Shown: positions 30,001 to 33,000 of the stretch, piece after piece
How the letters are laid out: the number at the start of each line of letters is the position of its first letter
Numbering within the stretch: position 1 is the stretch's first letter
IMG/VR virus record: IMGVR_UViG_2563366768_000003
Origin: a virus
Lineage: Duplodnaviria > Heunggongvirae > Uroviricota > Caudoviricetes
DNA length: 52,523 nt
Direction: 5' to 3' (one strand)
Made by a program: the position numbers

Positions 30001-33000
30001 GACTGATGCCACTGAGGCTGCGACCCGTGCAGTCACAGCAGCGGGGAATGCAGAGGAAAGCTCGACCCGTGCCGGAGAGTCTGAAAAAGCCGCCGGAGCT
30101 GATGCAGAAAAAGCCAGACAGCATGCTGAAAAGGCCAGGCTGGCGCAGGAGAGCGCCGGAGAGATCCTTAAGCGGGCAGAGGCTGCCACTGTCAGTGCTG
30201 AAGAGGCCAGACGTATGGCTGAGAATGCACGGGGGCCCCGGGGGCCTCAGGGAGAAACTGGTCCGAAGGGGGATGTCGGTCCTAAAGGCGAAACAGGTCC
30301 AGTGGGCCCTCAAGGGCCCGCAGGGCCGAAAGGTGAGCGTGGTGACGTTGGTGCTCAGGGGGCTGTAGGGCCTGCTGGTCCGCGTGGTGAGAAGGGCGAA
30401 CAGGGGGAGCGAGGACCGCAGGGAATACCAGGCCTGAAGGGGGATACCGGAGAGCGGGGGCCTAAAGGGGACCAGGGGGATATGGGGCCAAAAGGCGAGA
30501 AAGGTGATCCGGGAGGTCCTGCAGGCCCGCAAGGTCCTAAAGGCGAACGAGGAGAAGCCGGACCACAGGGACCGATGGGAGCACGAGGTGAGCGTGGGGA
30601 GACTGGCCCCCGAGGTGAACCTGGTCCTGCAGGTCCGAGAGGCGAACGAGGAGAGACCGGACCTCAGGGACCTCGTGGAGAGCCAGGTCCGGCAGGCAGC
30701 GCTGCAAATGTGGCTGATGCAACGACGGCACAGAAGGGAATTGTGCAGTTAAGCAGCGCAACGGACAGTGATGATGAAACGAAGGCTGCCACCCCGAAAG
30801 CGGTGAAAGCGGCAATGGATGTGGCAAATGAAGCGAAAACAAAGGCAGAAGAGGCTGCAGCAGGAGGTGGTGTTCCCGGTCCGAAAGGAGATAAAGGGGA
30901 CACGGGGCCAGCAGGTCCGGCTGGGCCGAAGGGTGATAAGGGAGAGCGCGGTGACACCGGCCCTGTCGGGGCAACCGGCGAACGGGGACCGGCAGGTGAT
31001 GCTGGTCCGGCAGGCCCGCAGGGGCCGAAAGGTGACAGGGGAGAGCGGGGAGAGACCGGTCTGACGGGAAATGCAGGTCCACAGGGTCCAAAGGGAGATA
31101 CCGGTGCGGCAGGCCCGGCAGGCCCACAGGGACCGAAAGGAGAAACAGGTGCGGCAGGCCCGGTGGGGGCGACCGGACCTCAGGGGCCGAAGGGCGACCC
31201 GGGGGAGACGCAAATACGGTTCCGTCTGGGGCCGGGAAACATTATTGAGACAAACAGCCATGGCTGGTTCCCGGATACAGATGGCGCACTCATCACCGGA
31301 CTGACCTTTCTTGACCCCAAAGATGCCACACGGGTTCAGGGTTTTTTTCAGCATTTGCAGGTCAGGTTTGGTGACGGGCCGTGGCAGGATGTCAAGGGGC
31401 TGGATGAAGTGGGCAGTGATACAGGCAGAACAGGAGAATGACATGAATATTTTGAGAAAGCTTATGCAGAGTCTGTGCGGTTGCGGAAAGCATGATGACT
31501 GTGAAAACGGGCAGTCGCTTACAGCACAACTGCGACTGGGACCGGCAGACATTCTGGAGTCAGATGAGAATGGCATTATTCCGGAGCAGGACAGGGTAAT
31601 CACACAGGTGGTGATACTGGATGCAGATAAAAAGCAGATACAGTGTGTGGTAAGACCGCTGCAAATCCTGCGTGCTGACGGGACGTGGGAAAATATTGGC
31701 GGGATGAAATAGCCGACAGCTTCACAAAAACCGGAGCCCGGCTCCGGTTTTTGTTGTCATGTATAGGGGGGGGTTATTAGAGAGTGAAGTAATAAACATG
31801 TTAATACGATGGAGTGAAGGATGCCGTGTAATTCTGGTTCAAGAGTTTTTTATGCCGGAAAATCGCAGGATTATTCTGGATAGTAAAGAATCCTGGTTAA
31901 TAATCTGTGATAGTCAGTTGGGCCATTTAATGCGCAGTATGTATCAGGGACGCCGTTTTATTCAGCTGAATCTGGAAAAATTGAAAGGGGTACATGATGT
32001 CGCCTTGCCAGTGAAATGGGAATTCACACGAAGACAGTGAATAGCTTTCTGTATACGGGAATGGCGAAAAATGGACTGTATGGTGTGAGTGTGAAACATC
32101 TTGCGTGTGCGGAGTGATGCTTCTCGTTGCTACAGCGGCAATGATAATGCAGTGAAAAAAGGGGAGCAATATGCTCCCCCAAACCGAAAGAAAATTGCAA
32201 TAATCAATGAAGTTATTTAGTCATCATCAGAATGTCATGCAAGGCATTTTGTTTCAGTGATGCCGATCGCGATTTTAGCGAATTCCATCATAAATCCCCT
32301 GATTTTTAAGCCTGAAGCAGTCAAAGGAATTTCTATGCCCTATATCGATATCACCACGATGCGTGGGATGATGCCGCGCGTTGTGACATCCATGCTGCCC
32401 GAGCATTCCGCTGTACTGGCGGAGGACTGCCATTTCCGGTTTGGTGTTATTACACCAGAACGTCAGATATCCGGGGTTGAGAAAACATTCACAATTAAGC
32501 CAAAAACAATTTTTCATTACCGTGACGATTTCTGGTTTGCATGGCCGGATGTGGTGGATGTGATCCGCAGTCCGATCGCTCAGGACCCCCACGGGCGTAT
32601 TTACTACACTGACGGGCGTTTTCCTAAAGTGACGGATGCGACTATTGCCACAAAAGGGGACGGGAATCACCCGACATCATCGTATCGTCTGGGGATCCCC
32701 GCGCCGACGACAGCTCCTGTCTGTACTGTTCAGCAGGGCGGTGATGTTTCTGACGATAACCCGAATGATGATGAAACCCGGTTTTATACGGAAACCTTTG
32801 TCTCAGATTATGGTGAAGAAGGTCCGCCAGGTCCGGCGTCTCTGGAGGTAACACTCCGTACTCCGGGAACTGCGGTACAACTGACGCTGGCTCCGGTGCC
32901 ATTGCAGAATGCCAGTATTAAACGTCGCCGGATTTATCGCTCTGCATCAGGTGGAGGGGAGGCGGATTTTTTACTTGTGGCTGAACTGGATGCATCCGTG

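Follow-up and report, generated by a model that had tools for sequence, protein, structure and literature searches.

We analysed a 52,523-nt stretch of DNA from a virus of the Caudoviricetes (IMG/VR record IMGVR_UViG_2563366768_000003), hereafter the window, which is a Shiga toxin 2 (Stx2) phage of the 933W/Sp5 type. In the gap between the genes L0123 and L0124 its minus strand probably carries an independently terminated small RNA (sRNA) gene, expressed in the lysogen, whose Hfq-bound product is likely to act by base pairing. The RNA ends at a Rho-independent terminator functioning on the minus strand only, with the 3' end at ~32155. It is made in uninduced lysogens, in which the opposing late strand is silent, and according to published tables it is bound by Hfq in vivo. 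There is good support for both the terminator and the presence of an RNA on the minus strand, and we infer a regulatory function for the RNA.

The locus lies within the 294-bp gap from L0123 to L0124 in the virion gene region. All annotated genes around the gap are on the plus (late) strand, and tail fibre genes flank the region on both sides. Over the surrounding 1 kb there is 100% identity with phage 933W, VT2-Sakai and many Stx2a phages, and the locus occurs in ~350 complete E. coli genomes and in most 933W-type phages. It corresponds to the ECs1231–ECs1232 gap of E. coli O157 Sakai (coordinates in NC_002695.2 are those of the window + 1255420, and in NC_002695.1 those of the window + 1255278). 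The parts of the RNA on which the argument turns are the following.

32155..32160, minus strand: T6 (U6 in the RNA) tail, predicted 3' end of the RNA (sequence and terminator scans)
32161..32180, minus strand: terminator hairpin, GGGGAGCA / TGCTCCCC, with an 8-bp perfect stem and a UAU loop
32181..32196, minus strand: U-rich tract AAUUUUCUUUCGGUUU directly 5' of the hairpin (sequence), part of the putative Hfq-binding module
32181..32259, minus strand: variable body of the RNA, in two alleles diverged by ~47% (alignments and mismatch profile)
32215..32249, minus strand: stretch directly seen as RNA in published chimeric reads (Waters et al. 2017)

A strong minus-strand intrinsic terminator had been part of the original prediction, and all of its elements are present and lie far above chance. 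On the minus strand the arms GGGGAGC(A) (32179..32172) and (T)GCTCCCC (32168..32161) enclose a loop of 3 nt (32171..32169), and an extra G-U closing pair is possible at 32180/32160. The hairpin, with an energy of -16.1 kcal/mol, is the best found by the terminator scan between 30500 and 34000 (9 pairs, 6 of them G-C). When we strictly required a perfect stem of 7 bp or more with 5 or more G-C pairs, a loop of 3-8 nt and T6 no further than 1 nt away, only 2 sites on the two strands of the window qualified, as compared to 0 in 50 shuffles. The other one, TCCCCGG-CGGCCA-CCGGGGA-T6, is located at 5004-5029 on the minus strand in the early/immunity region. Viewed from the plus strand, A6 precedes the hairpin and CAAACCGA follows it. 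This strand is without a U-tract, so the hairpin works for the minus strand only, which excludes the alternative that it terminates the upstream plus-strand gene.

The hairpin is generic in sequence and serves for termination. The exact 24-nt sequence GGGGAGCAT(A/G)TTGCTCCCCTTTTT, comprising the hairpin and T5, ends genes in seven unrelated bacteria, among them Chitinophaga, Dyadobacter and Vibrio, often with an A-run upstream; as the flanks are dissimilar, these are convergent terminators. A species-wide scan using the hairpin as a homologue finder accordingly returned such convergent, unrelated terminators rather than homologues and was discarded. A U-rich stretch 5' of a terminator hairpin is known as an Hfq-binding module (Ishikawa et al. 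2012). Judged by sequence, the AAUUUUCUUUCGGUUU tract together with the hairpin and the U6 tail has the make-up of a classical module of this kind; at the position of the tract, allele B carries the pyrimidine-rich CGUCUUUCUUCUGGUC.

Published tables from Sakai provide the direct evidence for the RNA. In Table S1B of the Hfq cross-linking and analysis of cDNA (CRAC) study (Tree et al. 2014, PMC4104026), int_1209 (ECs1231...ECs1232) is ranked 27th among intergenic regions; the five samples have 81206, 6030, 70478, 146246 and 3140 reads in one of the strand columns, with 0 in the second. We calibrated the strand columns with known sRNAs in the published tables. The column of int_1209 also holds the minus-strand ryhB, sroC and oxyS and most reads of the AsxR locus, whereas the plus-strand spf, cyaR, micA and ssrA fall in the opposite one; the int_1209 reads are therefore from the minus strand. 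Their depth is about that of the AsxR locus in three of the five samples. In the RNase E cross-linking, ligation and sequencing of hybrids (CLASH) data, two chimeric reads are assigned to 'ECs1231-1 5UTR', at 1287527..1287493 and 1287526..1287503 (Waters et al. 2017, PMC5286369, Tables EV2/EV3). In sequence they are an exact match to the minus strand of the window at 32249..32215, joined to MgrR, and at 32248..32225, joined to ribosomal RNA. The same study flags the fragment 32215-32249 for its overlap with an Hfq-CRAC site (PMC5286369). With the minus-only terminator and Hfq-CRAC reads from the minus strand against zero from the plus, the predicted small-RNA gene antisense to late transcription is supported. 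The strand-specific check through published tables recovers a minus-strand RNA in the gap but not with the anatomy and size first proposed.

The RNA has so far escaped naming. To enter the EcOnc list, a candidate needed a distance of >100 nt to any annotated feature (Sy et al. 2020). The gap formerly contained the minus-strand open reading frame (ORF) ECs1231, since dropped from NC_002695.2, and the RNA was never named because it was too near this deleted ORF. The EcOnc table has no entry at the coordinates of the locus; EcOnc46 is missing from that table and nothing ties it to the locus. A literature search with the RNA sequence itself gave no match.

Comparison of related loci reveals two alleles of the RNA body, namely allele A of the 933W type and allele B of the EibD/phi296 type. 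From 32260 to ~32560 all variants are near-identical. The hairpin keeps 19 of its 20 bases between the alleles, the single change being in the loop, while its flanks are 35-70% diverged. The T-run is T5-T7 in 32 of the 36 related A/B-type loci and TTTCTTT in the other 4. Beyond the T-run the phages are mosaic, with three upstream gene sets (L0123; eibD/orf-156D/orf-60D; cor). In these alignments the terminator appears as a conservation island at a recombination junction. Its retention beside three different upstream gene sets, as an island between diverged flanks, is counted in favour of an sRNA gene.

In a third lineage, allele C (L077, L079 and L084), the L0124 homologue is preceded by a different minus-strand terminator, CGGGGG...CCCCCG-T6, which lies ~270 nt upstream of the start codon; short motifs are common to this lineage and allele A. 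More distant relatives of L0124 have a plus-strand terminator at the site instead. Accessory DNA evidently uses the site as a general point of insertion. In the allele-B phages P-EibD, phi296 and POCJ13 the accessory genes upstream of the terminator are orf-156D and orf-60D together with eibD (encoding an immunoglobulin-binding protein) in some and the exclusion gene cor in others. Their presence in this slot marks the region between the tail fibre gene and L0124 as a moron insertion site. A 601-bp contig assigned to 'Xanthomonas pisi DSM 18956' (NZ_JPLE01000137.1) is 96.8% identical to the window at 31763-32362 and is probably a contamination of that assembly by an E. coli Stx phage.

Three promoter candidates bear on the 5' end of the RNA.

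32214..32242, minus strand: TTGCAT-N17-TAAATA, the promoter of the original prediction; weak and inside the transcribed region
32210..32238, minus strand: ATGACA-N17-TAACTT, alternative internal promoter-like site; 9.6 bits, allele A only
32287..32316, minus strand: TTCAGG-N18-TATGAT, candidate upstream promoter; 8.5 bits, alleles A and B

The motifs of the first of these are where they had been placed (TTGCAT at 32242..32237, a 17-nt spacer, TAAATA at 32219..32214), but the description as near-consensus does not hold, as only 6 of 12 positions agree: TTGCAT matches TTGACA at 3/6 positions and TAAATA matches TATAAT at 3/6, with the invariant final T missing. In our position-weight scan the site scores 3.8 bits, a value reached by ~20 sites per kb per strand, whereas scores of 8 bits or more occur at <2 sites per kb per strand. 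It is absent from the output of a separate promoter scan, and allele B has TTGCTA / GTAACA in place of TTGCAT / TAAATA. The transcript of 50-60 nt expected from 32207 is not supported by the CLASH reads, which cover all of the proposed -35 element and, in the longer read, 5/6 bases of the -10. With reads spanning the proposed promoter, some transcripts at least must start upstream of it and have a length of 95 nt or more. We infer a 5' end at or upstream of 32249 for at least a portion of the RNA population.

The second candidate (ATGACA 32238..32233, TAACTT 32215..32210) overlaps the first, from which it is displaced by 4 nt. Its predicted transcription start at ~32203 would give an RNA of ~49 nt, and its counterpart in allele B is ATGATA...CAACTC. 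A species of ~50 nt, primary or processed, may coexist with the longer RNA. The third candidate, with a predicted start at ~32280 and an RNA of ~126 nt, is the only one common to alleles A and B. It lies within the invariant block 32260-32560, but its conservation says little because the block remains conserved ~300 nt into L0124. In phage PPwrbA_EC3734 (LC645450) an insertion of the IS66 family (ISCro1-like) at the window junction 32278/32279 parts this candidate from the RNA body and the terminator.

Taken together, a plausible course of events would be as follows. Transcription starting near 32280 from TTCAGG-N18-TATGAT would give the RNA of ~126 nt, and a shorter form of ~50 nt could arise from ATGACA-N17-TAACTT or through processing by RNase E. 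With the U-rich tract, the hairpin and the U6 tail docked on Hfq, the unstructured and fast-evolving body would be left to pair with a partner RNA in trans. The RNA might thereby act as a sponge of MgrR, in the manner of AsxR and AgvB, and strong convergent late transcription would silence it upon induction.

MgrR regulates eptB, and thus lipopolysaccharide modification, and in attaching-effacing E. coli also grlR and cesT. It is a weak candidate for the partner of our RNA and the sole one that is experimentally hinted at. The segment of the RNA that bears on this putative pairing is given below.

32235..32249, minus strand: MgrR-complementary segment AAAUGCCUUGCAUGA, able to pair with CCAUGCAAGCAUUC of MgrR through 12 bp with one bulge

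The duplex has a predicted energy of -15.1 kcal/mol. The seed of MgrR comprises nt 55-63 (PMC8550237), and AAAUGCCUUGCAUGA would overlap it by pairing with nt 58-71, in a numbering which assumes that MgrR starts with GAUCCG. It is quite doubtful that the RNA is an unnamed Hfq-dependent sponge of MgrR whose allele B has another partner, the body being a swappable 'seed cassette'. [quoted passage not shown]

Several observations weigh against a trans-acting sRNA gene. The connection to MgrR consists of one chimeric read, the energy of the duplex is matched by 3.7% of shuffles, and the 8-nt core of the pairing is missing in allele B. The search for targets on the phage side, which the original prediction had suggested, returned no complement of at least 12 nt elsewhere in the window; there are three 11-mer complements, which is at chance level. 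Applied to three allele representatives, RNAalifold recovered the invariant terminator and a single compensatory pair but neither covariation nor a conserved fold of the body. The best promoter candidate reaches only 9.6 bits, and the conserved block containing the shared candidate runs 300 nt into L0124 and may have another cause. The literature searched yielded no Northern blot, stability data or phenotype for the RNA. Moreover, Hfq binds many terminated transcripts, so that binding is no proof of a regulatory role.

The genes bordering the gap, which define what the RNA is antisense to, are the following.

31759..32040, plus strand: L0123, late-strand ORF upstream of the gap (annotations; phrog_2014, unknown function)
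31852-32040, plus strand: ECs_1230, the call of L0123 by the Prokaryotic Genome Annotation Pipeline (annotation)
32335..33960, plus strand: L0124 / ECs_1232, internal virion protein (annotations; phrog_511, E = 2e-279)
32322-32337, plus strand: Shine-Dalgarno sequence and ATG of L0124 (sequence)

The ATG of L0124 is at 32335, and an older annotation (567 aa) opens at GTG 32257. The protein of 541 aa matches only positions 319-859 of the 862-position phrog_511 profile, so that homologues in other phages have ~320 extra N-terminal residues. Small plus-strand ORFs proposed in the gap by some annotators are inconsistent between the alleles. Also on the plus strand, a small ORF, MKLFSHHQNVMQGILFQ (32207-32260), comes after the hairpin. 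In allele C (L079) a strong Shine-Dalgarno sequence, AAGGAAGGAG, stands before a homologous ORF start (…MKTFSATLYGE). All three alleles, A, B and C, contain the motif CAGTGATGCCGATCG (GTG ATG CCG ATC…), which lies in frame with L0124 in A and B (GTG 32257) and opens a separate ORF of 33 aa in C.

The main rival to a trans-acting sRNA is a cis-antisense RNA directed at the phage's own late messenger RNA (mRNA), which would exclude superinfecting phages of the same allele. The prophage RNA would pair with the L0123-L0124 leader and the duplex would be cleaved, leaving less L0124 and fewer downstream tail gene products, and the two diverged body alleles would represent immunity types. The RNA is indeed fully complementary to the late transcript from 32155 to at least 32249, and in the uninduced Sakai CRAC data it is expressed while the late strand has 0 reads. 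A hypervariable body (~47% diverged) between near-identical flanks would suit such a role, as would the superinfection-exclusion gene cor among the neighbouring accessory genes of allele-B phages. A precedent exists in STnc6030, an antisense RNA to injection and tailspike genes that excludes BTP1 and does not exclude P22 (PMC7067206). However, STnc6030 is 786 nt long and overlaps coding sequence, whereas the overlap here is confined to the non-coding leader (32155 to ~32280), reaching no coding or start region and ending at least ~55 nt before the Shine-Dalgarno sequence and ATG 32335 of L0124 even with the longest candidate RNA. The strong association with Hfq and the U-rich/terminator module are typical of trans-acting sRNAs, and the abrupt change from 0% to 47% divergence resembles a recombination junction rather than the gradient of an arms race. 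We regard a cis-antisense role as rather unlikely.

It is likewise unlikely that the RNA is a functionless by-product, the hairpin serving to insulate the upstream accessory genes from spurious antisense transcription of the A/T-rich L0124 leader and Hfq binding the terminated fragment merely for its U-rich 3' end. Such a reading would explain why a strong promoter was not found, why the body is unconstrained in sequence and structure, why the identical 24-nt hairpin with T5 ends genes in seven unrelated bacteria and why distant relatives of L0124 carry a plus-strand terminator at the site. It fits less well with a read depth comparable to that of the characterised sRNA AsxR, with a minus-strand terminator in three upstream contexts and a different one in the third lineage, and with an architecture identical to that of the validated sRNA PasB.

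Very improbable is an mRNA, terminated at the hairpin, for a tiny minus-strand protein or for the old ORF ECs1231. The tiny ORF in question is the following.

ATG 32291 (ATGATG), minus strand: tiny ORF MMEFAKIAIGITETKCLA, 18 aa in allele A and 24 aa in allele B

An SD-like (Shine-Dalgarno-like) AGGGGA is present 3-6 nt upstream of the ATGATG, and the ORF occurs in both alleles. Against its translation from this RNA, every promoter candidate starts the RNA downstream of ATG 32291; the common N-terminus falls in a block that is already invariant, and the C-termini vary in sequence and length. ECs1231 is a probable 80-aa minus-strand frame. Both candidate frames for it have a TTG start at or just upstream of the hairpin and run through the terminator, and the ORF was deleted on re-annotation. 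The original prediction was right that no ORF with a Shine-Dalgarno sequence fits between promoter and terminator, where there are only TTG-start frames that read through the latter.

An independently terminated, Hfq-bound sRNA gene is thus the reading we favour. Stx phages are the main virulence determinant of enterohaemorrhagic E. coli (EHEC), and the Stx-phage small RNAs StxS, AsxR and EcOnc53/24B_1 already tie phage carriage to host regulation. The present locus is as heavily bound by Hfq as AsxR in published data, yet went unnamed through an annotation filter. If the RNA is a regulator, it would add a node to the post-transcriptional network of EHEC, which might act via MgrR or in allele-specific antisense immunity; with its two alleles, the locus lends itself to a direct test of both ideas. 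Should the RNA be inert, the locus would still show that filters based on the distance from an annotated ORF hide real transcripts.

Scanning the window with Rfam returned no IsrG or IS009 neighbours. At the locus itself no family was found at gathering score or at E up to 10, and the weak matches (RsaOG, DapZ and others) were rejected as driven by the terminator. No similarity to AsxR (14516-14568) and no second copy of the RNA were found in the window. Matches at gathering score elsewhere comprise STnc100 (plus strand), immediately adjoining AsxR (minus strand) within 14309-14568, along with the sok antitoxin RNA, the lambda cIII thermoregulator and three transfer RNA genes, the further coordinates being 50149-50323, 72-130 and 12652-12900. 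The offset between the window and NC_002695.1 differs by ~1.3 kb at the AsxR locus (14516) as compared to the sRNA locus (32155), so that Sakai Sp5 seems to contain an additional ~1.3 kb of DNA between the two loci, the length of an insertion sequence element.

Among known systems the closest analogue is PasB of prophage PP6 in enteropathogenic E. coli (EPEC) E2348/69, an Hfq-associated sRNA of ~83 nt validated by Northern blot and by RNA interaction by ligation and sequencing (RIL-seq) (Pearl Mizrahi et al. 2021, PMC8550237). Both RNAs are antisense, intergenic and located within a prophage tail-gene operon, and both end at a Rho-independent terminator. PasB belongs to a lambda-like siphovirus, of a type unlike this phage, and sits in the gap separating tail genes I and J, where its terminator directly adjoins the stop codon of the late gene I. 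It has been seen by Northern blot and RIL-seq, whereas our RNA is known from CRAC and CLASH tables only. Homology to PasB was rejected, as only weak local alignments were obtained; the architecture is analogous.

AsxR and AgvB (RF02703/RF02702) are, like this RNA, Hfq-bound, terminator-ended RNAs of Stx/lambdoid prophages (Tree et al. 2014), and they have in common with it a conserved 3' module, a variable 5' part and transcription against the late direction. In all of them the seed of a core sRNA may be paired, MgrR being the candidate here. AsxR and AgvB are 51-60 nt in length; our RNA is probably longer, and its sponge activity is putative. They occupy the PR'/stx moron site, whereas this RNA is located 17.6 kb downstream in the tail region, between tail fibre and internal virion protein genes and not at the moron site after PR'/Q. 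Membership of this family was rejected because of the different site and the lack of a model match (the conserved 3' region being ~42 nt).

The EcOnc53/sRNA108/24B_1 precursor, ~4.8 kb away, is likewise a minus-strand, Hfq-CRAC-detected RNA of the late/accessory region. EcOnc53, downstream of lom, differs in locus and sequence; it has been named, its ends have been mapped (67 nt) and a role in lysogeny has been proposed for it. STnc6030 of the Salmonella prophage BTP1 is also lysogen-expressed and antisense to the late structural operon of its own phage (Owen et al. 2020, PMC7067206). Its length of 786 nt, overlap with coding sequence and demonstrated exclusion phenotype, with no Hfq module reported, set it apart (PMC7067206). 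Our RNA overlaps a leader/intergenic stretch only. Lambda OOP RNA is short, ends at an intrinsic terminator and is convergent with and antisense to a phage mRNA. It resembles our RNA as a short, terminator-ended phage RNA antisense to phage mRNA; however, OOP belongs to the early region, where the overlap is with the 3' end of cII, and it acts through RNase III and has no homology to our RNA. Set beside these systems, the RNA of the L0123-L0124 gap is a new and as yet unnamed addition to the known class of prophage-encoded, Hfq-binding sRNAs.

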